Made by a program: the position numbers and the translations under genes. From a bacterium (GTDB lineage: Bacteria > Patescibacteriota > Minisyncoccia > Moranbacterales > UBA2206): 64,000 nucleotides of DNA. Shown piece after piece: positions 1,342 to 61,773 of this stretch; within the stretch, counting starts at the first letter, position 1; every line of letters starts with the position of its first letter. Under the pieces are notes generated by a model. The model was not told the origin of the DNA. It was given only the letters and a program-made list of their open reading frames with translations, and did not search any database. The DNA is taken from assembly GCA_029567195.1 (NCBI GenBank), contig JAKQLJ010000020.1, forward strand, positions 3,971 to 67,970, given 5' to 3'.

Positions 1342-3102
1342 CTATTTTATCATGTATATTTTTCCGTAGATAATGGTTTTTTGGCTCTCTGGCAGGCTTA
1401 AATCGGAGTTTTGCGGTTTGTCTTTTTCTCCGCTTTTTATGTTTAAAGACGTGGTTTCTATGCGATATTCCCTCTGAAAATACATTTTTTCTCCTAAGGG
1501 GCTTTTTTCGTATAGCTCAATATTTTTATCTGGCACAACAAGATATACATTGCTAAACCGGCTTAGTTTTATTTTTTCCAAATCTTTGGAATTAAAGAAG
1601 TAAACAGCTTGTTTGCCGTAAAGAAAATTCAACGGTCCTGCCATCATTGACCAGCCGGATCCGGAAGCTTCCCTATCCATCAAAACCAAATCGGAGGAAC
1701 TGAAATGGCGGCTCATTTCTTCAGTCTGGGCCAGTAAATTCTGGTTTTCTTTTACCGGAAAATAAGGGATGAAAATAAAAAGATTTATTATAAGCAGGGC
1801 CAGGGACAGAAAATGGAAAAATATTCTTTTTCTTTCAAAAAATTTGTCCAACAACCAAACGGAATAGAAAATGGAAACGGGAACTATGGTAAAAACAAAT
1901 CTTCTGAGCATCCAAGGGTGGTCGGAAGAAATGCTGGGATTAATAAGATACAAAAAAGCCGGCGAAGATATGAGAAGGGGAAACAAGTTTTCGTAATGTT
2001 TGTTTTTTAAGGCGTAAAAAAGGGCGATGAAAGCGATAATAACAAAATCAAAAATGGCATAGACAAAAAGAACCTTGAAAACATAAAAAAAGGAGAAAAT
2101 ATTACCGGATGGCGTAGTAGTATTTGCCAGTGAACCGAAAAGACCCTTCAGAGCATTTAAATAGAAAGGGTAATTAACGTTGAAACTGAAAAGATAAAGA
2201 ACTATCAAAGAGGCAAAAGCTACAGCCATCCATTTTTTTCTCAAAATATTTCCAAAATCGTTCCAGCTCTTTTGTTTTATGCGGATAAGAAAGATGGCAA
2301 TAGCCAAAAAAGCCAAGCCTTCAATCCTGGTAAAGGCCAGAAAAAGAAAAGAAAGAAGGGCGGACGAGAGATGGAGAGTATGTTTTCTTTCCATAAAAAT
2401 GGAAAAATTCCACAGTCCAAACCAGAAAAGAAAAAGAGCCAGGTTTTCGCTCAGAGTAAATTTAAAAAACCAGGAAAAAACAAAAGAGGTGAGGACCAAA
2501 AGCCAGGCGACAAAAGAAGGATAAGTCTTTAAATAAATTCGGCTGAAAGAAAAAAAGAAAATAAGAAACAAAAATAAGGTAATCCCGTTGGCTAAAACAA
2601 GGCCGGAAAGGCCAAAAATTGAATAAAAAGAAGCCAGCCAGGAAATGTAGCCGATGGGAAAATGGGTTATTAACTGTCCGTCCGCGGTATAGTTAAAGCC
2701 GGGAAAATTAAGCGCTTTTCCAGGACCGTAAATATTAAAAAACTCCCGAGAAGCTGGAAAGCTGAATTTTAATTGATGTTTTTGAGAGAGCCTAATGGCG
2801 GCTTCCGAAAAAGAGCCTTGGTCGCGGCCGGAAAAAATAGTGGGAGAAACAAAGGAAGACAAAATGTATACAAACAACAGGGAAATTATGATAATAACGG
2901 AAAATTTCGCGTGTTTGTAAAAAAAACGCCAATTTTTTCCGAAAATAAAAAAAAGAACGGCAGATCCTAAAATTAAATAAGCGGTTAAAATTTGCCCGTA
3001 AAATAATCCAATGATTGTCATTAAAAGGCTTAAAAAAAGAAGCCCCAACCAAAAAAGTCCCAAAATAGCCAGCAATTGGTTTTTGCCAAAATTAAATTTC
3101 AT
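1342..3102 (-). CDS. Polytopic integral membrane protein, putative GT-C-fold glycosyltransferase
   Basis: 586 aa, more than 12 predicted hydrophobic helices throughout and no soluble domain. It sits beside the glycosylation locus. Confidence 0.45.
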   Translation of the reverse strand: MKFNFGKNQLLAILGLFWLGLLFLSLLMTIIGLFYGQILTAYLILGSAVLFFIFGKNWRFFYKHAKFSVIIIISLLFVYILSSFVSPTIFSGRDQGSFSEAAIRLSQKHQLKFSFPASREFFNIYGPGKALNFPGFNYTADGQLITHFPIGYISWLASFYSIFGLSGLVLANGITLFLFLIFFFSFSRIYLKTYPSFVAWLLVLTSFVFSWFFKFTLSENLALFLFWFGLWNFSIFMERKHTLHLSSALLSFLFLAFTRIEGLAFLAIAIFLIRIKQKSWNDFGNILRKKWMAVAFASLIVLYLFSFNVNYPFYLNALKGLFGSLANTTTPSGNIFSFFYVFKVLFVYAIFDFVIIAFIALFYALKNKHYENLFPLLISSPAFLYLINPSISSDHPWMLRRFVFTIVPVSIFYSVWLLDKFFERKRIFFHFLSLALLIINLFIFIPYFPVKENQNLLAQTEEMSRHFSSSDLVLMDREASGSGWSMMAGPLNFLYGKQAVYFFNSKDLEKIKLSRFSNVYLVVPDKNIELYEKSPLGEKMYFQREYRIETTSLNIKSGEKDKPQNSDLSLPESQKTIIYGKIYMIK

Positions 3103-3206: not shown

Positions 3207-4385
3207 ATGAAAATATTGGTCATCGCGCCAACTCCTTTTTTTTCTGATCGGGGAACGCACATAAGAATATTGGAAGAAGCTCTGGCTCTGGAAAAATTGG
3301 GGCATGAAATTACCATCTCTACTTATCATATTGGGAAAAATATTGATCGGAGAATTAACACCAAGATAGATGTCAGAAGGATTTTGCGCCTTCTTTTTTG
3401 GTATAAAAAGCTGGAAGCGGGACCGGATTGGCAGAAAATAATTTTGGATATCATGCTTATCAGAAAAACTTTTTTTCTGGCCAGAACCAAAAAACCGGAC
3501 ATTATTCACGGCCATCTTCATGAAGGAGTGCTCATCGGCTGGATAGTAAAATACCTTCTTTTTTGGCGCAAGATTAAATTGGTGGCTGATTTCCATGGAA
3601 GCCTTACCGGGGAGATGCTTTCTCATGGCTATCTTAAACGCGGACTCAAGGGAATTTTCTCTCAGATTGAAAAATTTATCAATAAACGTGGCGATTATGC
3701 CATAACCAGTTCCTGGGAATGCACAAAGGATGTGAAAAAATCCAGAAAAGATGGTAAAATAGAAACAGTGCTGGATGGAATTAATCTCGACAGTTTTGTT
3801 TTTTCTTCAAAAAAAGAAGAGATGAAAAAAGAATGGGAAATTCCGGACGGAAAATTTATCGTTGGTTATACCGGGGGACTCATTCCCAATAAAGGAATCG
3901 ATTATCTTTTGAAAGCTATCCCTTTAGTCTTGGAAAAACGGAAGGATGTATTTTTTTTGATTGGCGGTTTTCCTCCGGAAGAAATAGAAAGATTCATAAA
4001 AGACAAAAAATTGGGAGAATTCGTCCGTTTGGTCAGTCCTTTGGATTATTTCCGCTTGCCTGAGTTTTTGCATATTTGCGACATTGCTATCGATCCCAAA
4101 GGCAGTGATACTAACCAAGCCAGCGGCAAGATGCTGAATTATATGGCAGCCGGACTGGCCGTTGTCTGTTTTGACAAAGTTAATAACCGGGAATATTTAG
4201 GTGAAGGGGGATATTTTTGTCGGGAGATGTCTCCTCTGGCTTTGGCCGAAGGGATTTTTTATTTTCTGGAAAAACCGGAAGAGGCGAAACAAAAAGGATT
4301 ATATAACAGGGAAAAAGCTAAAACTTTTAGTTGGGATGCTCCGGCTAAAAAAATTGAATTAATATATAATAAAATAAAAAGTTAA
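3207..4385 (+). CDS. Glycosyltransferase family 4 (GT-B, glycosyl transferase group 1)
   Basis: Motif YTGGLIPNKGIDYLLKAIPLV, and a C-terminal EGGYF...E/K pattern typical of GT4 donor-binding domains. Confidence 0.8.
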   Translation: MKILVIAPTPFFSDRGTHIRILEEALALEKLGHEITISTYHIGKNIDRRINTKIDVRRILRLLFWYKKLEAGPDWQKIILDIMLIRKTFFLARTKKPDIIHGHLHEGVLIGWIVKYLLFWRKIKLVADFHGSLTGEMLSHGYLKRGLKGIFSQIEKFINKRGDYAITSSWECTKDVKKSRKDGKIETVLDGINLDSFVFSSKKEEMKKEWEIPDGKFIVGYTGGLIPNKGIDYLLKAIPLVLEKRKDVFFLIGGFPPEEIERFIKDKKLGEFVRLVSPLDYFRLPEFLHICDIAIDPKGSDTNQASGKMLNYMAAGLAVVCFDKVNNREYLGEGGYFCREMSPLALAEGIFYFLEKPEEAKQKGLYNREKAKTFSWDAPAKKIELIYNKIKS

Positions 4386-4387
4386 CT

Positions 4388-5785
4388 ATGAAAAAAATCG
4401 CAAGGTATTTAGCCGAAAAGAAGGCAATTATTATAGGTTTGGTTATTTTTATCGCTATCTTTACAGCGGCCTTTTTCTTTGCCAGCGGCAACAAAAAGAT
4501 CATCGGGCTAAAATCCCTTTCTTTGGCCAGCAAAGTATCAAAATTTTTGCCTATTACCAAGGACGAGCAAAAAGAATTGGAAGTGGTCAATAAATTGGTG
4601 GAAACATTAAATAAAAAAGACGATCGCACCTGGACATTTATGATATTTCTCCAAAATAATATGGAGCTTCGTCCAGGCGGAGGATTTCTGGGCCAGTATG
4701 CGGTAGTAAAGATAAAAAACGGAGAAGTTATTTCCACTACCATTGAGGATGCCAATTTGTTGGACCAAAGAATCACTGCCAAAGTGGCTCCTCCCTATCC
4801 ATTTAAAAGAATGATGCAGATAAAAAGCTGGAAATTTAGAGATTCCAACTTTTCCCCCGATTTTCCAACTAACATTGAAAAAGCTAAATATTTTTATCGT
4901 TTGTCTGGAAGAGGCGGTGACTTTGACGGTTTTGTTGCTGTCAATACTGAAGTGTTCAATCATATTTTGGCTCTTACCGGTCCAATTACTGTTCCCGGAT
5001 ATTCAGGAGAATATAACAGCCGGGATGGAGCTTTAAAGCTGGAAGAATTTGTGGAAAAGCAATACATTATGAATCCGGAGCTGGACACCCAAAACCGAAA
5101 AATGATTCTTCAGAAAATGGGTCCAATGATAATTGAAAAACTTTTTACTCTTGGCAATGTGACTAAAATCGCTGAATTGGTGCACAATGATCTCAAAAAC
5201 AAGAATATAATGCTCAATTTTAAGGATCCCGCTCTTCAGTCCCAAGTGGAAAGCGTTTTTTGGGACGGCAAAGTGGCAACCGATTGGGGATCGGATTATT
5301 TGATGCTGGTGGATGCCAATATGGGGGCTTTAAAAACTGATTATTACATCAAGCGGGAAATTTCCTATGATGTTGATTTGACGGCAGAGAAGCCAACGGT
5401 TACCCTTAATATCAAATATAAAAATACTGCTCCTTACGGCGATTGGCGAACAAGCGATTATCACACCTTTCTTCGGGTTTACGTGCCGAAAGGATCGACT
5501 TTTTTGGAAAGAACCATGGTAGGTTATCCTAATATTGGAGAAGAATTCGGCAAAACTTATTTCGGGGTGATTGTCCATGTGCTTATAAATGGAGAAACAA
5601 ACGGAATGCTTAAATATGAGCTTCCGGCTGACTTTAACAAGGATGATTACCGGCTTTTGGTTCAGAAGCAATCAGGAGTGGGTGACGTGCCGATAAAAAT
5701 TCACCTGAAAACCAAAGACGGAGAATTTACCCAAGAATCAATTCTCAATCATGACACAAGATTTGAGTTTCAGAAGGGAAAATAA
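4388..5785 (+). CDS. Exported protein with N-terminal TM anchor; possibly DUF4012-like
   Basis: N-terminal helix IIGLVIFIAIFTAAFFFA, then a soluble domain with an LRPGGGFLGQYAVV motif. The family assignment is from memory only. Confidence 0.4.
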   Translation: MKKIARYLAEKKAIIIGLVIFIAIFTAAFFFASGNKKIIGLKSLSLASKVSKFLPITKDEQKELEVVNKLVETLNKKDDRTWTFMIFLQNNMELRPGGGFLGQYAVVKIKNGEVISTTIEDANLLDQRITAKVAPPYPFKRMMQIKSWKFRDSNFSPDFPTNIEKAKYFYRLSGRGGDFDGFVAVNTEVFNHILALTGPITVPGYSGEYNSRDGALKLEEFVEKQYIMNPELDTQNRKMILQKMGPMIIEKLFTLGNVTKIAELVHNDLKNKNIMLNFKDPALQSQVESVFWDGKVATDWGSDYLMLVDANMGALKTDYYIKREISYDVDLTAEKPTVTLNIKYKNTAPYGDWRTSDYHTFLRVYVPKGSTFLERTMVGYPNIGEEFGKTYFGVIVHVLINGETNGMLKYELPADFNKDDYRLLVQKQSGVGDVPIKIHLKTKDGEFTQESILNHDTRFEFQKGK

Positions 5786-5806
5786 TACTTAGAGTTTTTC
5801 AAAAGT

Positions 5807-6988
5807 ATGAAATCATTTCTGGTAAAACTCGGAAAAATATATAAGATGATCAGAAAAAACGGTCCTTGGAACGGATGCAGGATCGTTTTTATGTATGTCG
5901 GAATATTCATAAAAAGCCTTTTCGGAGTTAAGTCGGGAGATATCCTTATCATTACCGGCGGAGTGGGTGATAGCGCTTTTTATCGGGCCGGTAACCAAAA
6001 AGAAGAATTGAATATGCACGGTTTTCGCTGTTTTTCTACTATCACCGATAATCCTTTTCTTTTAAAATATGTTTCCCGGTTTAAAATTTTTATTTTTCAC
6101 CGAACAATTGTCACTCCTAAAATTGCCGCATTTTTGGAAGAAATAAAAAAAGCGAAAAAAGAGATAATTTTTGATACTGATGATCTGGTTTATGATATAA
6201 AATATTTTGAGAATACGGACAGCTATCAGAGTATGAACGCTTTGGAAAAACGCCAATATGAAAAAGGGGTGGGAGAGGAAATTGTGAAAGACGGTTATGT
6301 AAAAGTGGCTACAACTACCACCAGTTTTCTGGCCAACAAACTAAGGGAATCGGGGAAGATTGTTTATATTTCCAAAAATAAAATTTCCAACCACGAATTG
6401 GAGATAGCGGAAAAAATACGCCAAAATTTCAAGAAAAAAGAGGATGGGATTGTCAGAATCGGCTATTATAGCGGCACTATTTCCCACAATAAGGATTTTG
6501 CTTCCATTACTCCGGCGCTTATGAATATTTTAGAAAAGTATGAAAAGACGGAATTGCTTTTAGCCGGACCGCTGGACAGTGAAAACGAGCTGAATAAATT
6601 TAAGGACAGAGTTAAAAAGCTGCCTTTTGTGCCAAGGGATCAATATTATGAAAATCTTTATTTGTCTGATATCAATCTGGCTCCCTTGATTAAAGGCGAT
6701 CCTTTTTGCGAATCAAAATCGGAAATCAAATTTACGGAACCGGGAGTTTTGGGAGTGCCGACGGTGGCAATTAGGAATCAGACCTTTTCTGAAGCCATAG
6801 AAGACGGGGTGGACGGGTTTTTAGCGGACAATATTTCCGAATGGACAGAAAAAATATCCCGGTTAATTGAAAATGAAAATTTACGGCGGGAAATGGGAGA
6901 AAAAGCGCGGGAAAAAGTTTTACGCGAATATTCTAACAAAAATAGTCATAACGAGAAATATTACAATTATCTAAAAAGCAAATTATAA
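5807..6988 (+). CDS. Glycosyltransferase, GT4-like C-terminal domain
   Basis: C-terminal half FTEPGVLGVPTVAIRNQTFSEAIEDGVDGFLADN...EKAREKVLREYS matches the GT1/GT4 donor-binding domain. The N-terminus is divergent. Confidence 0.55.
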   Translation: MKSFLVKLGKIYKMIRKNGPWNGCRIVFMYVGIFIKSLFGVKSGDILIITGGVGDSAFYRAGNQKEELNMHGFRCFSTITDNPFLLKYVSRFKIFIFHRTIVTPKIAAFLEEIKKAKKEIIFDTDDLVYDIKYFENTDSYQSMNALEKRQYEKGVGEEIVKDGYVKVATTTTSFLANKLRESGKIVYISKNKISNHELEIAEKIRQNFKKKEDGIVRIGYYSGTISHNKDFASITPALMNILEKYEKTELLLAGPLDSENELNKFKDRVKKLPFVPRDQYYENLYLSDINLAPLIKGDPFCESKSEIKFTEPGVLGVPTVAIRNQTFSEAIEDGVDGFLADNISEWTEKISRLIENENLRREMGEKAREKVLREYSNKNSHNEKYYNYLKSKL

Positions 6989-7057: not shown

Positions 7058-8011
7058 ATGGCAACAATATTAATCACTGGCGGAGCGGGGTTTATCGGCT
7101 CGGCGTGCGCTAAAAAATTAATGGATAGAGGAGACAAGGTTGTTATAATTGATAATTTTAATAACTATTACGATCCGTCTTTAAAAGAAGCGAGAATTAA
7201 AAAATTTCTTAAAGGTTACAAGTTCAAGCTCTACCGTGGCGATATTCGGGATGCAAAACTAATTGAAAAAATATTCAGGAAAGAAAAAATTGACAAAGTT
7301 ATCCATCTGGCGGCTTTGGCCGGAGTGAGGAATTCTCTGCTGGATCCCAGAAGTTATTTTGATGTAAACGTCATGGGATCAATCAATCTTCTGGAAGCGG
7401 CGGTGAAATATAAAATAAAAAACTTTGTTTTTGCTTCCTCTTCTTCGGTTTATGGTAATAATAAAAAAACGCCCTTTTCGGAAAGTGATCCGGTGGATAC
7501 TCCCATTTCTCCTTATGCGGCCAGCAAAAAAACAGACGAGCTTATTGCCCACACTTATAGTCACATTTATGGACTCAATATTACGGCGTTAAGGTTTTTT
7601 ACCGTTTACGGCCCTTGGGGAAGGCCGGATATGGCGCTTTTTCTGTTTGCCGACGGGATAACCAGCGGAAAACCGATAAATGTTTTTAATCGCGGAAAAA
7701 TGAGCCGCAATTTTACCTATATTGATGACATCGTTTCCGGAACAATCACAGTCTTGGATAAGTGCCAGGGCTATGGCGTCATGAATATCGGCGGGGATAA
7801 AGAAGAGACGCTTATGCGTTACATCGAAGTTTTGGAAAAAAATCTTGGCAAAAAGGCCAAAAAAAATATGTTGCCAATGCAGCCGGGAGATGTGCCAAAA
7901 ACGGTTGCCGACATTAGAAGACTTAGAAAGCTCGGCTGGAAACCGACTACCAGAATCGAAAAAGGAATAGCTAATTTTGTGGAGTGGTATAAGAAATACT
8001 ACAATAAATGA
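7058..8011 (+). CDS. NAD-dependent epimerase/dehydratase, UDP-glucuronate 4-epimerase-like (Cap1J/Gla family)
   Basis: [12 protein letters not shown] Rossmann motif and YxxxK (YAASK). VYGPWGRPDMALF is the signature seen in UDP-GlcA 4-epimerases. Confidence 0.75.
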   Translation: MATILITGGAGFIGSACAKKLMDRGDKVVIIDNFNNYYDPSLKEARIKKFLKGYKFKLYRGDIRDAKLIEKIFRKEKIDKVIHLAALAGVRNSLLDPRSYFDVNVMGSINLLEAAVKYKIKNFVFASSSSVYGNNKKTPFSESDPVDTPISPYAASKKTDELIAHTYSHIYGLNITALRFFTVYGPWGRPDMALFLFADGITSGKPINVFNRGKMSRNFTYIDDIVSGTITVLDKCQGYGVMNIGGDKEETLMRYIEVLEKNLGKKAKKNMLPMQPGDVPKTVADIRRLRKLGWKPTTRIEKGIANFVEWYKKYYNK

Positions 8012-9276
8012 TCCAAAGGATAAAAAACAACGCTTTTGCCAGAAATAGCCTTATTCTTTTCATTGGCACAATGACAGCCAATGTCCTTAATTATGTTTTT
8101 CATTTGGTAATTGGAAGAATGGTTAGTGCTGAAGTTTATGGAGAAGTGGAATCTTTAGTCTCGCTTATTGCCATAATTTCCGTTCCGGCGGCGACGCTTA
8201 CCATGGTGGCCACAAAATTCAGTGCGGCCAACAAAGCCGAAAATGACAGGGTGGGAAGCAGTGAAATAATGAAATATTTCAACAGGAAAATTTTCGTCTA
8301 TGGCTTGCCTGTTTTTATTGTCGCTGTTGCGATTTCTCCTTTTATCAAGAATTTTTTAAAAATTGAAAGTGTCTGGCCGCTCATTCTGGTCTGGATTATG
8401 ATGTTTTTGTCTTTTTTGGCAGCTGTCACAAGTGGAATTATAAACGGCTGGCAAAAATTCAAAGATGCCAGCTGGATGGGAATTTTTTCAGCGGTTATAA
8501 AACTGGTGGCGGCTGTTTTTTTGGTTAAATTAGGCTTTGCAGTGAACGGAGTGATTGGCGGTTTTGCCTTGGGGGCGCTGGTATCATACGCATTGTCTCT
8601 TTATTTTCTCCGTTTCATTAAAGATGGGGAAAAAAATAACAAAAATACTGTTTCCAATACCAATTTTTTCCCCATAAAAAGATATATTATCCCGGTTTTT
8701 ATTGGAAATTTGGCCATAAATATTTTGAGCAATGCCGATATGGTTCTGGCCAAACATAATCTGGATTCTATTTCAGCCGGCCAATACGGAGCGTTGACGG
8801 TGGTTTCTAAAGTTATTTTTTTTGCCACCGGTATCATTGGCACGGTTCTTTTCTCCATGTCAGCGGAAGATAACCACAAAAAAAATAATTCCAAGTCGAC
8901 ATTTAAACACGCTTTCTGCTTGATGTCAGTTGTGTCGGCAGGAGCGATTTTTTTCTATCTGCTATTTCCTGAATTTATTCTGGCGATGCTGTTTGGCGAT
9001 AAATATCGGGACGTTTCCAACTATCTTATCTGGTTTGCCATATCGGTAACTCTTTTCTCTTTTGTTAACTTGGTTTTTCAGTATCTTATTTCCATTCATA
9101 AAACAGATATCGCCTATGTTCTTTTGGTCGTTTCTGTCTTGGCCTCTCTGGCCGTCTTATTTGTAGGGCGCGGTATTTTTGCTATAATAAGCATAATGAT
9201 AACGGCCCAAGCTTCCGCTCTGATTTTGGGTGCTTATTATGTCTATAAAAATAGGAAAGAAGCCTATGGAAGATAA
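8008..9276 (+). CDS. Polysaccharide biosynthesis protein / oligosaccharide flippase (Wzx, MOP superfamily)
   Basis: 422 aa with ~12 TM helices, and an N-terminus NSLILFIGTMTANVLNYVFHLVIGRMVSAEVYG typical of the Wzx/RfbX family. ATGA start/stop overlap with the upstream epimerase. Confidence 0.75.
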   Translation: MIQRIKNNAFARNSLILFIGTMTANVLNYVFHLVIGRMVSAEVYGEVESLVSLIAIISVPAATLTMVATKFSAANKAENDRVGSSEIMKYFNRKIFVYGLPVFIVAVAISPFIKNFLKIESVWPLILVWIMMFLSFLAAVTSGIINGWQKFKDASWMGIFSAVIKLVAAVFLVKLGFAVNGVIGGFALGALVSYALSLYFLRFIKDGEKNNKNTVSNTNFFPIKRYIIPVFIGNLAINILSNADMVLAKHNLDSISAGQYGALTVVSKVIFFATGIIGTVLFSMSAEDNHKKNNSKSTFKHAFCLMSVVSAGAIFFYLLFPEFILAMLFGDKYRDVSNYLIWFAISVTLFSFVNLVFQYLISIHKTDIAYVLLVVSVLASLAVLFVGRGIFAIISIMITAQASALILGAYYVYKNRKEAYGR

Positions 9277-56955: not shown

Positions 56956-57789
56956 TTATAACGGGCTTTTGATGTTTTGCAAATTATTATTGGCCACTTT
57001 CGTGTAAATCTGGGTTGTTTCCAGCTTGGCATGCCCTAAAAGCGTCTGGATATATCTTATATCAGTTCCACCTTCCAGTAAATGCGTGGCAAAAGAGTGG
57101 CGAAGAGAATGGCAAGAGGCGCATTTTTTTATGCCTGAATTTTTGAGCGCTTCAGCAAAAACCTTTTGTGCGGTTCGTTCCGTCAGTTTGCCTCCGCGAT
57201 CTGATTCAAAAACATAATTATCCGCGTTTTTATTTTTTACATATTTTCGCAGAACATTGATTATTTTTTCCGACAAAATAGTCGTTCTGTCTTTTGCGCC
57301 TTTAGCGCCGCGGATAAATAATAATTTACCGTCAAAATCAAAATTTTTCACTTTTACGCTCACAACTTCTGATACTCGCAATCCTGATGAATACATAAGT
57401 CCCATCATTAGTTTATGTTTGACGCTTAAAATAGTTCCCAGAATTTTCCTAATTTCCTCTTTTGTAAAAACTTCCGGTATTTTCTTGGGTTTTTTGGCGC
57501 GAGGAATATTGGCAAAAAACCGGCGGCGGAGTATTTTTTCAAAATAAAATCGGAGGGCGCTATAAGCGGTGTTTAGTGTTGAGGCGGATTTGCTGTCATC
57601 TACCAACTTTTCCAAATAATTCCGTAAATCCTGGGCGTTGATATTCCTGGGATTTTTATTTGCGAACTTTAAGGCGGCTGTTATATAATAAAGATAAGAT
57701 TCGACAGTTCTGGGACTAAAATGCCGCAGTTTCATCTCCTGTTTTAATTGATAAACCGGATCCTTGCTAGGGTAATAATTTCCATTCAT
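56956..57789 (-). CDS. Tyrosine site-specific recombinase (Xer-like, 277 aa), divergent from cassette array
   Basis: Catalytic residues are in order: SGLRVSEV (Arg), GAKGAKDR (Lys), HSLRHSFAT (HxxR), LLGHAKLETTQIYTKV (His and the Tyr nucleophile). Confidence 0.8.
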   Translation of the reverse strand: MNGNYYPSKDPVYQLKQEMKLRHFSPRTVESYLYYITAALKFANKNPRNINAQDLRNYLEKLVDDSKSASTLNTAYSALRFYFEKILRRRFFANIPRAKKPKKIPEVFTKEEIRKILGTILSVKHKLMMGLMYSSGLRVSEVVSVKVKNFDFDGKLLFIRGAKGAKDRTTILSEKIINVLRKYVKNKNADNYVFESDRGGKLTERTAQKVFAEALKNSGIKKCASCHSLRHSFATHLLEGGTDIRYIQTLLGHAKLETTQIYTKVANNNLQNIKSPL

Positions 57790-57839
57790 ACCCTCTTATG
57801 ATTAGAAATTTATATTCTAATTTTAGCACAATTAAAGTA

Positions 57840-57885
57840 TATTTTAAAACAATTCGCATATAAGAAGTTATCGGAAATAAATTAA
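57840..57885 (+). other. Putative attI-like recombination site (caaTTCGCATataagaaGTTATCGGAAATA)
   Basis: Lies between the recombinase start and the first cassette gene. It contains a GTT triplet followed by the same 13-mer, GTTATCGGAAATA, found at cassette junction 60901-60913. The TTCGCAT...GTT half resembles the right arms of the downstream attC-like sites. Confidence 0.4.
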
Positions 57886-57897
57886 AAACCTCAACCT

Positions 57898-58323
57898 ATG
57901 AAGAGATTAAAATGTAATGTCGGCGAATATGGCGTAATCGTAAATCAACGAGAAGAATTTTTGATTTTAAGACTCCCCCTAAACAAAGAGTTTGCCAAAG
58001 AAATGTGGATGTTCCCGGGTGGCCGACTTGATGCTGATGACCAACCTGAGCTTGGCTTACAGCGTGAAGTACTAGAAGAAACCAGCCTTAAAATAAAAAT
58101 TATCGCTCCTGTTCACGTCGCCAGATGGGGAATTGAGAATCCGTCGAAGTACTCGGTATTTTTTCTATGTCGTTTAATTGGCAAGCAGGAAGTAAAGATC
58201 AGCCACGAACATATTGAAAGCAAATGGATAAAATTTAGTGATATAGAAAAAATCCCTTGGCATAATATTAACAGTAAGCTAGCAGCAAAAAAATCAAAAA
58301 TTCTCCTGGCGAAAGGTTTTTAA
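57898..58323 (+). CDS. Nudix hydrolase (cassette 1)
   Basis: Nudix box GGRLDADDQPELGLQREVLEETSL (Gx5Ex7REVxEE). Confidence 0.7.
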   Translation: MKRLKCNVGEYGVIVNQREEFLILRLPLNKEFAKEMWMFPGGRLDADDQPELGLQREVLEETSLKIKIIAPVHVARWGIENPSKYSVFFLCRLIGKQEVKISHEHIESKWIKFSDIEKIPWHNINSKLAAKKSKILLAKGF

Positions 58324-58330
58324 TTTACAT

Positions 58331-58406
58331 CCGATAACACGCGATATCCAAAATTTACTACGTTGCACTTTAGTAAACTTCGGATATCGCGGATACGTTA
58401 TCTGAA
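58331..58406 (+). other. attC-like imperfect palindrome 1 (gatAAC-a-cgcgatatcc...ggatatcgcg-gatac-GTTatctgaaat)
   Basis: 10-bp L-type stem with an extended outer stem (aaatttacta/tagtaaa). 5'-AAC is 1 nt from the stem and GTT-3' is 5 nt from it. It directly follows the stop codon. Confidence 0.5.
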
Positions 58407-58428
58407 ATTGCAAAAAGCTTTCTAAAAA

Positions 58429-58980
58429 ATGATAAAAAAACCAAAAAGGATAATCATTGTTCCCAGCAACGACATCAATCCTCTGAACCAGCTATCAAAT
58501 ACTCATACATTGTTGAGATGTAAGGACGCTTTGAAGCTATGGAAAACAAATGGGTTTGATTTTATCGTAACTTCTGGAGGTTGCTACTACAACAAAAAAG
58601 TACAAACTATACCCGCCGCTGACATAATGAAGAGTTGGTTTGTTTCAAATGAAGTTCCTGAGGCTCAAATTATCAGTGAGAATAAATCGCTTGATACTTA
58701 CACTAACCTTCATTATTCGTTGAAATTATTGAAAGATAGCAACATCACTCTTGGTAATTTAGCTATTGTCAGTCATTGGACACACCTGACCAGAATAAAA
58801 ATAATTTTGTGGCGAAATTATAAAATCAAACCCGTTTGTTTTCCCGTTGAGTATAAACTGTCTTTTGCTGAATGGCTACATGAATTTTTTTGGTTTTTTT
58901 ATCATTTTTTAGACAAAACAGGCGATGGATTTCTGGAAAGAAAGATTCGCAAAATGGTTGAGGTTAGAGCTTCTTCGTAG
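58429..58980 (+). CDS. DUF218 (YdcF/ElyC-like) domain protein (cassette 2)
   Basis: IIIVPSNDINPLN...IVTSGG...IISENKSLDTYTNLHYS matches the DUF218 pattern (GG...E...S.nT.eN). Confidence 0.5.
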   Translation: MIKKPKRIIIVPSNDINPLNQLSNTHTLLRCKDALKLWKTNGFDFIVTSGGCYYNKKVQTIPAADIMKSWFVSNEVPEAQIISENKSLDTYTNLHYSLKLLKDSNITLGNLAIVSHWTHLTRIKIILWRNYKIKPVCFPVEYKLSFAEWLHEFFWFFYHFLDKTGDGFLERKIRKMVEVRASS

Positions 58981-58994
58981 GAGCTTTTTGCAAC

Positions 58995-59178
58995 ATCAGA
59001 TAACACGGCACATGCGGTTCATCCCGCCCTTTCATTTTTATATCAAGGTATGGCGGGACTCTCCCAAATTGCGCTGACGATATGGCTAGCTTAGTGATAT
59101 AATCAAGTAAAGCGAAATTAACAAATTTAATCAATAATCCACGGCGCAACTTCGCATGTGCCGAAACGTTGAGCGAAA
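58995..59178 (+). other. attC-like imperfect palindrome 2 (agatAAC-a-cggcacatgcg...cgcatgtgccg-aaac-GTTgagcgaaat)
   Basis: 11-bp stem, internal 7-bp hairpin (tcccgcc...ggcggga). GTTGAGC fits GTTRRRY. Confidence 0.5.
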
Positions 59179-59232
59179 TAATAATAAATTTTCCTTTTAA
59201 CTAAGACAGTTCAATTCCGGTCATTTTCTTAT

Positions 59233-59712
59233 ATGCAGAAAAAAATCAAATATTTAAAATCTTTACCAAGCAAAACCGTGGCAGTAGGTGTTTTATTGTT
59301 TGATAGAAATAATCAACTTCTAGTCTTGAAGCCTGGGTACAAGGATTGCTGGACAATCCCAGGCGGTATTGTAGAAAAACTTGAATCGCCGAATATAGCT
59401 GCAATACGAGAAGCAAAAGAAGAAGTTGGCTTAGCTATTAAGCTTGTTCAATGTATTGGCGTTGATTATTTGTCATACCAACTCGCAGATTATAAAGGTG
59501 AAAGTTTGCATATTATTTTCATTGGCAATCGCTTATCAAGCAAAGATGTTAATAATATTCATATTGATGGTAAGGAAATTATTGAATACAAATTTGTTGA
59601 TTTTAAAGATGCGGTAAAAATGATTGACCCGCTTCTTTCTAGAAGGCTAAGGGGATTGCATAAAAAGCTCAACAAATTTGTGTTTATGGAAAACGGGATA
59701 AGGAAAGCGTAA
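59233..59712 (+). CDS. Nudix hydrolase (cassette 3)
   Basis: Nudix box GGIVEKLESPNIAAIREAKEEVGL. Confidence 0.7.
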   Translation: MQKKIKYLKSLPSKTVAVGVLLFDRNNQLLVLKPGYKDCWTIPGGIVEKLESPNIAAIREAKEEVGLAIKLVQCIGVDYLSYQLADYKGESLHIIFIGNRLSSKDVNNIHIDGKEIIEYKFVDFKDAVKMIDPLLSRRLRGLHKKLNKFVFMENGIRKA

Positions 59713-59767
59713 AAGAAAATGACCCGAATTGAATTACAAATAAGGAATGAAAAATTTATTATTACAT

Positions 59768-59903
59768 CGCCCAACATCGAGTATGGGGTAAAAATATTTA
59801 CCTTTTAGTAATTTAATAGATGAACGTAAAATATTTTTGACCCAAATTCTGTTTCGTTTCACTTCAACAGAACTTCCCATACTCGAAAACGTTAAACGAA
59901 ATT
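59768..59903 (+). other. attC-like imperfect palindrome 3 (gcccAAC-a-tcgagtatggg...cccatactcga-aaac-GTTaaacgaaat)
   Basis: 11-bp stem whose sequence differs from site 2 but keeps identical spacer geometry (1 nt / 4 nt). GTTAAAC fits GTTRRRY. Confidence 0.5.
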
Positions 59904-59912
59904 TTGAAAAAT

Positions 59913-60287
59913 ATGGATTTATCGCAATTAAAAAACGGCAAATATTTTAGAGGGCACTACACTGACCGTGGTGAATATAGAGGGTGGTTTTGTGGATCGT
60001 TTTTAAAAGAAAATCACCCCGGAAAAACGGAACAATTGGAAATAAAATACGCTGAACATAAAAAGGGAGACATCGAAAAGCCGCACTATCATCAAAAAAT
60101 GATTGAAGTATTAATTTTTTTGGAGGGGAAGGCTAAATTTAACGTAAATGGAGAAAATGTTATGCTCGGCAAGGGTGATTTTCTTTTTGTGGATGTGAAC
60201 AATATCATTTCCGGAGAGTTCCTTGAACCCTCTAAAATATTTGCTTTGCATACCCCAAGCCTTCCTGATGATGAAGTATTTGTGTAG
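59913..60287 (+). CDS. Cupin-domain protein (cassette 4)
   Basis: HYHQKMIEVLIFLEGKAKFNVNGENVMLGKGDFLFV is a cupin motif pair. ATG at 59913 is preferred over the TTG at 59904. Confidence 0.6.
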   Translation: MDLSQLKNGKYFRGHYTDRGEYRGWFCGSFLKENHPGKTEQLEIKYAEHKKGDIEKPHYHQKMIEVLIFLEGKAKFNVNGENVMLGKGDFLFVDVNNIISGEFLEPSKIFALHTPSLPDDEVFV

Positions 60288-60304
60288 TAATATTTTTCAA
60301 AACA

Positions 60305-60460
60305 TCGCCTAACACAACATATCCGGCTCATCCCACCTTTCATTTTTATTATTCAAAGTATGGCGGAATTCACCCAAATTGCCGATTTTCTTTTCATTCT
60401 ATATACTTAAATCAAGGTAAAAATCGGCAACTTCGCATGTGCCGAAACGTTATGCGAATT
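60305..60460 (+). other. attC-like imperfect palindrome 4 (gccTAAC...caacttcgcatgtgccg-aaac-GTTatgcgaatt)
   Basis: The right arm is nearly identical to site 2. The left arm is degenerate (acaacatatccgg). It has a GCCTAAC R''-like box. Confidence 0.45.
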
Positions 60461-60510
60461 TTCTTTTAAATTATTTTTTGCTCTTTGGAAACCACAAGAA
60501 GGAGGATGCC

Positions 60511-60732
60511 ATGAAATTCAGTACTATTGCAAGGGTTGTTGTTATTGGCGTATCTTGCATCATAGTTGGATACGTCATGCTAAAGGTGTTCGAGGCTAAT
60601 TGTCGCGAGGGGCTAACTAAGACGAATCATGAGCTTGCTCACTTGGAAAGCATGACTCCGGAAAAATACTACCAGGAGGTGAGGGAGAAGCTTATTCTTC
60701 AAAGAGATAACTACGAGCAAGCACTTAAGTAA
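60511..60732 (+). CDS. Small membrane protein, 73 aa (cassette 5)
   Basis: Strong RBS aggagg 6 nt upstream of the ATG at 60511. One TM helix (VVVIGVSCIIVGYVML). The track ORF start at 60439 lies inside the attC-like site and is unlikely to be real. Confidence 0.45.
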   Translation: MKFSTIARVVVIGVSCIIVGYVMLKVFEANCREGLTKTNHELAHLESMTPEKYYQEVREKLILQRDNYEQALK

Positions 60733-60879
60733 ACAAGGGGTGGCTTTCCCAAGGAGGCCACCCATTCATTCTTAGCAAAAAATTTTTCAAAATGAAACTC
60801 AAGGGACATTGCGCTTTTGCCCCACTCAAATTTTGTGCCCTTTTCTTTCTTTTATATTATAATAAGGAAGAAAGACAAA

Positions 60880-60915
60880 AACTTCGGATGATGCGTAAAC
60901 GTTATCGGAAATACT
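60880..60915 (+). other. Cassette junction with right-arm-only attC remnant (aacttcggatgatgcgtaaac-GTTATCGGAAATA)
   Basis: The 13-mer after GTT is identical to the attI-like site 57867-57879. No matching left arm was found. A ggggtggc...gccaccc hairpin upstream at 60737-60763 may be a terminator. Confidence 0.35.
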
Positions 60916-61335: not shown

Positions 61336-61557
61336 TTACGAACGGTTATGGTCAATGATTTGCCGAAGCGCTTCCGGCACATTATATTGCGGAAACTCAT
61401 CTGATAATTCACGAACTATCTCTGACGAAAGTTTGGTCGTACGTGCGTATCTATGCGTATACTCACTCCTAATCTTGATTTCTATCAGTATCGGAGCGGA
61501 CGTACGTCCTTCCTGTTTCTGCTGCTCTGCAAGAGCATTAAATTGATCAAAATACAT
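61336..61557 (-). CDS. Hypothetical small protein, 73 aa, in locally GC-rich (~50%) segment
   Basis: RBS aaggagg 7 nt upstream. Its composition is clearly distinct from the flanks. Confidence 0.45.
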   Translation of the reverse strand: MYFDQFNALAEQQKQEGRTSAPILIEIKIRSEYTHRYARTTKLSSEIVRELSDEFPQYNVPEALRQIIDHNRS

Positions 61558-61773
61558 CGCTGTCCTCCTTGGCTGGATGATTTTTTACGGAACTACATCA
61601 ACGTAATAGGATAGCATAAAATAACATTCCTGTCAAATGCCGTTGGCAAAAAATTATAAAAAAGCTCTTAAATTAAGGAAATTATACGGATTTTTCTTTT
61701 TCACTCCACTCAAATTTTCTATTAATCGCTAATCCTTCTTTCTAAAGCCCGAAACGGGAAAATAAATTTAAAA

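Follow-up and report, generated by a model that had tools for sequence, protein, structure and literature searches.

In canonical integrons, the R box of an attC site is cleaved between A and C on the bottom strand, the central part of the site is a roughly symmetrical unpaired region made of two non-complementary spacers, and the extrahelical bases always lie on the R''-L'' arm (PMC3458562). Integron integrases are defined by an additional, IntI-specific domain around patch III (PMC9668308; PMC8138268; Messier & Roy 2001), which the archaeal integron integrases do carry (PMC9668308). The Xer recombinases act on dif, a 28-bp site whose 6-bp centre is flanked by two arms of 11 bp with partial symmetry (PMC5357621), and the 'Cand' tyrosine recombinases of candidate phyla have been listed beside taxon-specific subgroups that were suggested to compensate for Xer function (Smyshlyaev et al., PMC8138268). 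Here, we analyse a stretch of 64,000 nucleotides from the metagenome-assembled genome of an uncultured Candidatus Moranbacteria member (contig JAKQLJ010000020.1 of GCA_029567195.1; hereafter the window), in which attC-like sites (S1 to S5) alternate with single genes next to the gene of a Xer-type tyrosine recombinase. We consider it likely that these sites and genes form the cassette array of an integron-like platform for gene capture, carried on the chromosome of a member of the Candidate Phyla Radiation (CPR; Patescibacteria) and served by a Xer-type recombinase. Judged from its sequence, it is probably an analogue of the integron in which such an enzyme recombines folded single strands.

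Hairpin sites of the window

The coordinates and arms of S1-S3 were read directly from the plus strand at 58.3-60.5 kb. The sites are assigned to the minus strand, and each complete site consists of a left half (R''-L'') and a right half (L'-R') separated by a loop:

58327-58408, minus strand: S1, R'' 58327-58338, a, L'' 58340-58349, loop, L' 58382-58391, spacer GATAC 58392-58396, R' 58397-58408; plus strand AAC-a-CGCGATATCC (58340-58349) ... GGATATCGCG (58382-58391)-gatac-GTT (58397)
58993-59179, minus strand: S2, L'' 59006-59016, L' 59153-59163, spacer AAAC, GTT at 59168; plus strand AAC-a-CGGCACATGCG (59006-59016) ... CGCATGTGCCG (59153-59163)-aaac-GTT (59168)
59764-59902, minus strand: S3, L'' 59777-59787, L' 59876-59886, spacer AAAC, GTT at 59891; plus strand AAC-a-TCGAGTATGGG (59777-59787) ... 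CCCATACTCGA (59876-59886)-aaac-GTT (59891)
60302-60460, minus strand: S4, homologue of S2 with an intact right half, L' 60434-60444, AAAC, GTT at 60449
60880-60912, minus strand: S5, right half only, L' CGGATGATGCGT 60885-60896, AAAC, GTT at 60901

S1-S3 have YAAC...GTTR cores, L stems of 10-11 bp and loops of ~30 to 136 nt, and their folding as single-stranded DNA (ssDNA) gave z values of -3.2 to -6.2 (-20.7 kcal/mol and z -6.2 for the bottom strand of S1). When both strands of the whole 64 kb were scanned for perfect stems of at least 10 bp framed by AAC and GTT, with spacers of 1 and 4-5 nt, exactly three matches were obtained, and these were S1-S3; 200 dinucleotide-preserving shuffles of the window yielded 0.035 matches on average and one at most. 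The pattern is real and far beyond chance. In S4, the right arm is exactly that of S2, the left arm (60315-60325) has diverged at 4 of the 11 positions, and the stem is broken, with 7 of 11 positions pairing. The right half of S5 was detected by nhmmer with an E-value of 8e-4 without any match to a left half, the segment 60791-60834 being the remnant of the lost left partner. On the right arm, both S4 and S5 still have the spacer of 4 nt. A search of the region against Rfam gave no match at E ≤ 1.

Recurrence of the sites and covariation of their stems

Loci (numbered with the prefix L) were fetched for homologues of the recombinase that lie on long contigs, and the useful close loci came from exact-protein look-ups. 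A scan of genome contigs with the single protein yielded eight loci, several of them ending just upstream of the gene, and a scan of metagenome contigs returned mostly relatives of 35-48% identity among the matches listed. The same module was found in at least 14 other Patescibacteria loci (L012-L014, L016-L022, L026, L099, L101, L102), whose recombinases are 41 to 74% identical to the window protein. Every locus with enough upstream sequence carries small accessory genes that are separated by sites of the same geometry and are divergent from the recombinase gene. Half-site profiles built for nhmmer detected 40 right halves at E ≤ 0.05, all of them on the recombinase strand, upstream of the gene and alternating with left halves. 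With the same profiles, the window array was resolved into five right halves and four left halves, again all on the recombinase strand, and nothing convincing was found elsewhere in the 64 kb. The sites are strictly linked to this recombinase family.

On the recombinase-sense strand, the consensus of the sites is 5'-aATTTCGnnYAAC-GTWT(C)-CGSnRTATSCG-AAGTT ... CGSATAYnSCG-T-GTTRnnCGAtgt. In one subclass, a single extra C is bulged out on the L' arm (ACGCAT-C-ATCTG opposite CAGATATGCGT); it is represented by L017 8287/8462, L099 9116/9297, L101 6953/7133, L102 7514/7696, L016 1813/1975 and, in the window, by S5 (60885-60896), whose ACGCAT-C-ATC type occurs with an intact partner in L017, L099, L101 and L102.

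Among 23 sites with perfect stems, nine of the 11 L-stem pairs vary on both sides, one never varies and one varies on one side only. The covariation score was 0.477, compared with 0.156 in shuffles (none of 500 reached 0.477) and 0.053-0.106 in slid controls. Since these 23 sites had been selected for their stems, the scan for perfect stems was circular as evidence of covariation, and we replaced it by the nhmmer half-site profiles with a control of permuted partners. Of 35 pairs of neighbouring right and left halves found by the profiles alone, 27 were complementary at 10 or more of the 11 positions without gaps, and five of the other eight fitted with a 1-nt bulge, i.e., they correspond to the extra-C subclass. 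Permuted partners reached the same complementarity in 2.6% of cases, with a mean of 6.1 of 11. As a support only, we also used a covariance model (R1), which finds the sites with short and medium loops (46-68 bits; 62.4 bits for S1 and 62.2 bits for S3) and misses the long-loop S2 and the degenerate S4 and S5.

These results bear on the initial annotation of the sites, which had been made from S1-S3 and had proposed that pairing is maintained by compensatory change. The complementarity of independently found half-sites agrees with this proposal, and the extra unpaired bases were indeed found where they had been placed, on the right arm, as a spacer of 4-5 nt in S1-S3 and of 4 nt in S4 and S5. 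The stems had been called entirely different in sequence: the perfect stems of S1-S3 do differ, but they share the consensus CGSnRTATSCG. The position of the stem 1 nt after AAC and 4-5 nt before GTT holds for S1-S3, i.e., for three of the five sites, but not for S4 and S5, which have no intact left partner. The idea that structure rather than sequence is conserved was overstated, as the right half is a well-conserved two-arm site.

Crossover point and cassette boundaries

The crossover was located from the four variable bases that adjoin AAC and GTT. A cassette has as its two ends the flank of a left half and, at the following site in the direction of the recombinase gene (or at attI), the flank of the right half. 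Between these ends, the variable bases were complementary in fractions of 0.97, 0.86, 0.86 and 0.94 (n = 35), compared with 0.64, 0.47, 0.31 and 0.58 across a single site (n = 36). The flanks thus match within a cassette and not across a site, and therefore the crossover lies at G|TT of the plus strand, which is AA|C on the bottom strand. The complementarity of cassette ends extends over a median of 23 nt, whereas mismatched controls gave 4 nt; in the window it covers 23-25 nt and, with gaps, up to ~69 nt. Such complementarity is expected if the cassettes are discrete units that are exchanged at AA|C, each with its own long palindrome when circular.

The boundaries are also visible between genomes. 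L012 and L013 have an identical recombinase and different cassettes, they are homologous exactly as far as AAC, and next to attI L013 has one cassette more than L012. Furthermore, (T)AAC is the very beginning of the contigs L003 and L098, and contig L001 has 14 nt ahead of it. Other assemblies of the window locus break off within the array, either at or close to the sequence repeated in S2 and S4 or close to S5.

The window array consists of five cassettes on the plus strand, in which single open reading frames (ORFs) alternate with the sites; it is divergent from the minus-strand recombinase gene immediately to its left:

57868-58397, plus strand: cassette 1, NUDIX hydrolase ORF 57898-58323 (Pfam NUDIX, 2e-14), S1 at the 3' end
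58398-59168, plus strand: cassette 2, DUF218 ORF 58429-58980 (Pfam DUF218, 1e-17), S2
59169-59891, plus strand: cassette 3, NUDIX ORF 59233-59712 (Pfam NUDIX, 4e-18), S3
59892-60449, plus strand: cassette 4, cupin ORF 59904/59913-60287 (Pfam Cupin_2, 2e-8), S4
60450-60901, plus strand: cassette 5, ORF 60511-60732 for a predicted small membrane protein of 73 aa, terminator-like hairpin 60738-60763

The ends of cassette 1 are complementary at 23 of 25 nt. In cassette 2, the complementary segments are 58397-58419 and 58982-59004; in cassette 3, 59168-59236 and 59707-59775 (~69 nt, gapped); and in cassette 4, 59891-59914 and 60290-60313. The alternative arrangement, with the site at the 5' end of the cassette and the crossover at the left AAC, was excluded: the first cassette has its TT-flank directly after the left arm of attI, without stem or loop.

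A Xer-type recombinase without the IntI-specific domain

The module to the left of the array consists of three elements:

56956-57789, minus strand: tyrosine recombinase gene, 277 aa, Xer/IntI-related, without the IntI-specific insertion (Pfam Phage_integrase, 2e-42; Phage_int_SAM_4, 5e-17)
57796-57848, minus strand: promoter-like site of the recombinase gene (57848-57820) and leader TAAAyTTyTAATCATAA (57796-57812), from a promoter scan and the comparison of homologous loci
57851-57878, no strand assigned: attI-like site of 11-6-11 layout, top strand AATTCGCATAT|AAGAAG|TTATCGGAAAT, presumed crossover G57867|T57868

The recombinase scored 227.5 bits with the NCBIfam model XerA_Arch, above the cut-off of 220, and 224 bits with the integron-integrase model TIGR02249, below the cut-off of 265 and with a match split in two. 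It could be aligned end to end with the archaeal (Pyrococcus) XerA (4a8e; E 1e-44, residues 12-272). The alignment with VchIntIA (2a3v) fell into two blocks, residues 182-240 of the integrase being opposite residues 185-200 of the query (16 residues), and that with IntI1 of R100 (31% identity) contained 47 gap positions in the region of the IntI insertion. Relative to these two integrases, ~43-47 residues are missing. Because of these gaps and the score below the TIGR02249 cut-off, we conclude that the IntI-specific domain is absent. The protein is a simple two-domain Xer-type tyrosine recombinase with the R-K-H-R-H-Y catalytic set (R138, K163, H227, R230, H253 and Y262, invariant in 19 homologues). 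Its C-terminus (...SPL) and its SAM_4 N-terminal domain are as in IntI. In the VchIntIA structure with a Vibrio cholerae repeat (VCR), determined by MacDonald and colleagues in 2006, the IntI insertion reportedly contacts the extrahelical bases. The lack of this insertion and the lack of IntI-type extrahelical bases in the Moranbacteria sites are consistent with each other.

An identical protein is encoded in GCA_035393245.1, and the family is very large, with at least 8000 candidate homologues in a protein search. The 119 nearest non-identical homologue clusters share 64-84% identity with it and have 260-302 aa (nearly all 276-285 aa); names of the source organisms include Moranbacteria, Falkowbacteria and Parcubacteria. 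The Prokaryotic Genome Annotation Pipeline (PGAP) names the relatives 'site-specific tyrosine recombinase/integron integrase'. The family is probably the 'Cand' Xer-related subgroup of Smyshlyaev et al.

The attI site begins ~62 nt upstream of the recombinase start codon in the window and ~75-80 nt upstream in most close homologues, where it reads ATTTCGnnYAA|CTAGTT|ATATGCGAAyT on the recombinase-sense strand. A comparison of the upstream regions of 19 homologous loci showed that the recombinase side of AAC is conserved and the cassette side is variable. The site matches the 11-6-11 layout of dif, and its presumed crossover lies at the boundary of arm and centre, where Xer-type enzymes cleave. 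The strongly conserved leader just upstream of the start codon was seen at the same position in L001, L012-L014, L016-L018, L097-L099, L101 and L102, and it may be a regulatory element of the recombinase gene. In most of the other close loci, it is preceded by a promoter-like pair TTGAyT-17-TAkAAT, the window's own site being weaker.

On the minus strand, the right half of a cassette site resembles attI, as it is itself a two-arm site (ATTTCGnnYAAC-GTWT-CGnnATATnCGAAGTT) that holds both recombinase-binding arms in inverted orientation, with AAyTTCG in common, around a centre of 9-10 nt. The left half is the complement of the right half with a 6-nt centre. AAC and CGAA are 10 nt apart in attI and in the left half versus 13-14 nt in the right half, and the centres of right half and attI (9-10 versus 6) have only their first base in common. 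In addition, we noted that the R-box arms are conserved, yet positions 10-11 from AAC/GTT are never complementary: in all sites ATTtcg stands opposite cgaTGT (T.T, T.G). This mismatch is fixed.

Cargo of the cassettes

No replication or morphogenesis genes were present among the window cassettes in a Pfam scan, and the 73-aa protein of cassette 5 had no Pfam match. In the other loci, the cassettes encode Fic, HicA/antitoxin, isochorismatase, GIY-YIG/DUF4357, NUDIX, M48 peptidase and Ltp lipoprotein genes as well as type I restriction-modification. The latter is found in L012 (815-8024), where a 7.2-kb unit between a left-half and a right-half site, with the complementary flanks GTTATACGC and GCGTATAAC, comprises a complete type I restriction-modification system (HsdR, HsdM-S) and an AAA_13 ATPase. 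Here, a defence system appears to be cassette cargo.

Further observations concern the genes and loops of the cassettes. The DUF218 gene contains inverted repeats at 58421-58447/58887-58913 (27 nt, 100%) and 58541-58565/58820-58844 (25 nt, 96%), and the cupin gene contains one at 59938-59954/60228-60244 (17 nt, 100%). These repeats are nested inside the complementary ends of the cassettes, and it looks as though a cassette in single-stranded form could close along its full length into a single hairpin. Promoter-like sequences on the plus strand, facing the downstream cassette, are present in the loops of S2 and S4 (CTGACG-18-TATAAT with TG, 59074-59103, and TTGCCG-17-TATACT, 60379-60407, respectively), and expression of the next gene may also be driven from these sites. 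Beyond S5, nested inverted repeats (61229-61260/61670-61701 and 61271-61291/61643-61663) flank a minus-strand ORF of 73 aa (61336-61557) with its own terminator-like hairpin, and the left remnant of S5 (60791-60834) has a counterpart of 70% similarity at 61675-61718; the array may end here in a cassette that has decayed or become inverted.

Some loci show other arrangements. In L017, perfectly complementary L and R arms are ~650 nt apart (7560-8253) with an ORF inside the 'loop', and an almost empty R''-R' interval of ~40 nt (8253-8297) follows directly after this long-loop site; a gene is therefore not always located between sites but can lie in the loop. The more distant L032, L042 and L078 encode insertion-less recombinases of 38-42% identity and have sites of the same asymmetry (AAC-gtccc-13-bp stem ... 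t-GTT). In L032 (recombinase at 1927-2751, plus strand; sites at ~4050-4170, 5685-5807 and 8026-8150), the array lies downstream of the recombinase gene in the same direction, i.e., the orientation of the gene is inverted.

Proposed mechanism and alternative explanations

In the mechanism that we propose, the platform would comprise the recombinase gene with its promoter and a double-stranded, dif-like attI upstream of the start codon, and each cassette would consist of one gene followed by the imperfect palindrome R''-L''...L'-R'. Folding of the minus ('bottom') strand would pair the two halves and so create a Xer-like duplex with two arms at canonical spacing, in which the surplus 3-4 bases (GTWT) would bulge out from the cleaved arm immediately 3' of AA|C, where cleavage would occur. 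It is this one strand that the recombinase would exchange with attI or with another site, and the junction would be resolved by replication, as in integrons and CTXφ. A platform of this kind may be active at present. A folded substrate is favoured because the right half as duplex DNA would be out of register with attI and because both the stems and the cassette ends covary. Several points weigh against this mechanism. The strand that would fold follows from the logic of the junctions; the right half alone has both arms and the left half alone has the canonical spacing, so that a double-stranded pathway is possible; S4 and S5 are degenerate. The 64-84% identity over the 119 nearest clusters is unusually high for an enzyme of a mobile element and fits a housekeeping Xer protein. 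Finally, the putative viral contig L106 (IMG/VR UViG_3300031578_000055) has six right-half-like motifs on its minus strand (890-2060; YATAAC-GTTT-CGnGnTTATAyG-AAGT), each upstream of a small gene, with one left-half match and no recombinase homologue in the 10 kb fetched, and the right-half motif may thus have other uses. The ATAT core of the motifs in L106 forms a TATAAT-like box on the gene-sense strand. In two other viral contigs with matches to the attI pattern, L104 and L105, no recombinase homologue was found nearby.

The same anatomy would result if the module were a housekeeping Xer/dif system, with the recombinase as the dimer resolvase, attI as dif, and the cassettes as elements that stack at dif through folded attP-like sites, in the manner of integrative mobile elements exploiting Xer (IMEX); what differs is the primary function and the beneficiary. 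The end-to-end alignment with XerA and the XerA score above the NCBIfam cut-off point in this direction, as do the strong conservation and very wide distribution of the recombinase, the place of the 'Cand' enzymes beside subgroups suggested to compensate for Xer (PMC8138268), and the dif layout of attI (PMC5357621). There is precedent both for such a module, as xerS directly adjoins difSL (PMC5357621), and for the folded site, as CTXφ integrates folded ssDNA by a single Xer-catalysed strand exchange (PMC3442271). However, the GC skew falls from ~+0.1 to ~0 near 50 kb and does not change its sign at attI (57.8 kb), though a window of 64 kb is too short for this measure, and the genes flanking the module differ in every lineage examined. 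Moreover, every locus with adequate upstream coverage carries cassettes, which indicates a dedicated platform. We regard this housekeeping reading, the serious alternative to ours, as rather unlikely. We rate as quite improbable that the cassettes move by conventional double-stranded recombination, with the right half as an ordinary core site and the left half as a decoy, a regulatory copy or a by-product. This would explain why the right half contains two inverted arms with a common AAyTTCG, why its outer arm GAAGTT is conserved when the complement in the left half is not, why the left half has decayed in S4 and S5 but the right half has not, and why L106 has right-half-like motifs with almost no left halves. 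However, a centre of 9-10 bp in the right half and one of 6 bp in attI, with one base in common, would put a duplex-by-duplex exchange out of register, the stems covary at positions outside the consensus, and the 23-nt complementarity of the cassette ends would have no role in a duplex pathway.

Two further explanations concern the family of the sites and their mobility. The initial annotation had called the sites attC-like and had raised the question of whether the unpaired bases fall at the positions of the IntI extrahelical bases, as they would in a canonical integron with an IntI integrase and ordinary attC sites. The divergent recombinase gene, attI, the single-gene cassettes of one orientation, the YAAC...GTTR cores, the SAM_4 N-terminal domain, the C-terminal SPL and the PGAP name all speak for an integron. 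As a reference, we folded the attC that follows aadA1 in the R100 class 1 integron, a sequence present with 100% identity at the expected position in at least 1962 plasmid records. Its spacers measure 5 and 6 nt, and its bulges are on the R''-L'' arm (the 3' arm of the bottom strand); in the Moranbacteria sites, the spacer of the R''-L'' arm has 1 nt and that of the L'-R' arm 4-5 nt, and the L stems are perfect or carry an extra C on the L' arm. Thus, the 3-4 surplus bases do not lie at IntI positions (PMC3458562): they form the spacer beside the crossover on the L'-R' arm. A model built from the Moranbacteria sites gave no match to the R100 attC, and the adjacent recombinase lacks the IntI-specific insertion and stays below the TIGR02249 cut-off. 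An IntI-type integron is accordingly highly improbable: the sites are attC-like imperfect palindromes associated with cassettes, but they are not IntI-type, so that the early reading was right in kind (cassette recombination sites kept by compensatory change) and wrong in family. It would be equally surprising if the palindromes were non-mobile intergenic sequences without any role in recombination, such as duplicated promoters or terminators or elements like repetitive extragenic palindromes (REP). S2 and S4 are homologous and have promoter-like hexamers in their loops that face the next gene, and hairpins behind genes could terminate transcription; yet no T-run follows the stems, and a terminator scan did not call any of S1-S5. 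The flanks covary in a cassette-specific manner, arrays differ behind an identical recombinase, contigs break at AAC, and the sites resemble attI and are tied to one recombinase family and one strand. The early argument that promoter duplication explains the sites poorly is therefore upheld by the stem covariation, the recurrence and the cassette-specific flanks, in spite of the promoter-like loops.

Significance and comparison with known systems

Both the definition of integrons and the searches for them rely on the IntI insertion and a canonical attC model, and a Xer-type system with inverted asymmetry may escape such searches. The paper on IntegronFinder 2.0 does not mention Patescibacteria, CPR or candidate phyla, its sole 'Candidatus' being Nitrospira inopinata. 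In a literature survey of incomplete coverage, we found no description of integron-like arrays, attC-like sites or cassette capture in Patescibacteria/CPR, nor of an insertion-less integron integrase with hairpin sites. If the system is real, it extends integron-like capture to the CPR, whose small genomes acquire genes in ways that are little known, and offers a concrete way to approach the long-held view that integrons arose from Xer recombinases: the recombinase stands between XerA and IntI in sequence, attI is like dif, and the cassette sites fold like the attP of CTXφ. With the half-site profiles, CPR metagenomes could be mined for cassette cargo, and the sites could explain the assembly breaks next to the recombinase gene. 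We tentatively go one step further and suggest, as a possibility that is somewhat short of even, that Parcubacteria-type CPR carry a lineage-wide chromosomal integron analogue, in which a conserved Xer-type recombinase without the IntI domain, maybe their only Xer protein, recognizes a bulge of 3-4 nt on the arm that is cleaved rather than extrahelical bases on the opposite arm. Such a system would either have arisen independently as a way of capturing cassettes in single-stranded form or have survived as an intermediate stage from Xer/dif with IMEX to integrons, and it would be a main route by which tiny CPR genomes exchange accessory and defence genes.

Among the described systems, the modules of a single Xer-type recombinase (XerS/difSL, XerH/difH and archaeal XerA/dif) share with this locus a site beside the gene and 11-bp arms around a short centre (PMC5357621), and XerA is the best structural-sequence match of the recombinase. 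Their sites are single, double-stranded and serve dimer resolution, however, and neither cassette arrays nor hairpin partners have been described for them. In the pdif modules of Acinetobacter plasmids, genes are bracketed by Xer-type sites and are suggested to move as modules (PMC7399989). Unlike the sites described here, the pdif sites are plain 28-bp duplex XerC/D sites in alternating orientation, and they have neither hairpin sites nor a dedicated recombinase gene beside them nor one fixed point of insertion. CTXφ and other IMEX are closer in the form of their substrate: two inverted dif-like half-sites fold in ssDNA into a two-arm target with an imperfect centre, a Xer-type enzyme integrates it beside a dif-like site by one strand exchange followed by replication (PMC3442271), and successive elements can stack at the site. 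In contrast, the units here are single accessory genes without replication or phage functions, they form an ordered array behind a dedicated module of promoter, gene and attI, and one recombinase takes the place of XerC plus XerD.

The closest likeness is to integrons (class 1 of R100, Vibrio chromosomal and archaeal). In both, the recombinase gene is divergent from single-gene cassettes of one orientation, attI lies beside this gene, the cassettes end in R''-L''...L'-R' with YAAC/GTTR cores (RYYYAAC/GTTRRRY in attC) and a loop of variable length (~30 to 650 nt), the crossover is at G|TT, the stem is free to vary in sequence if pairing is kept, and the cargo comprises accessory, toxin-antitoxin and defence genes. 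The differences are that the recombinase here has no IntI-specific insertion; that the surplus bases form a spacer block of 3-4 nt on the L'-R' arm and are not single extrahelical bases in L''; that the R box has 9 bp, or typically ~23 bp between cassette ends, rather than 7 bp; that the right half is much more conserved in sequence; and that the host is a CPR bacterium. What appears to be new in this locus is thus the logic of an integron, carried out with a Xer-type enzyme and a different structural code.

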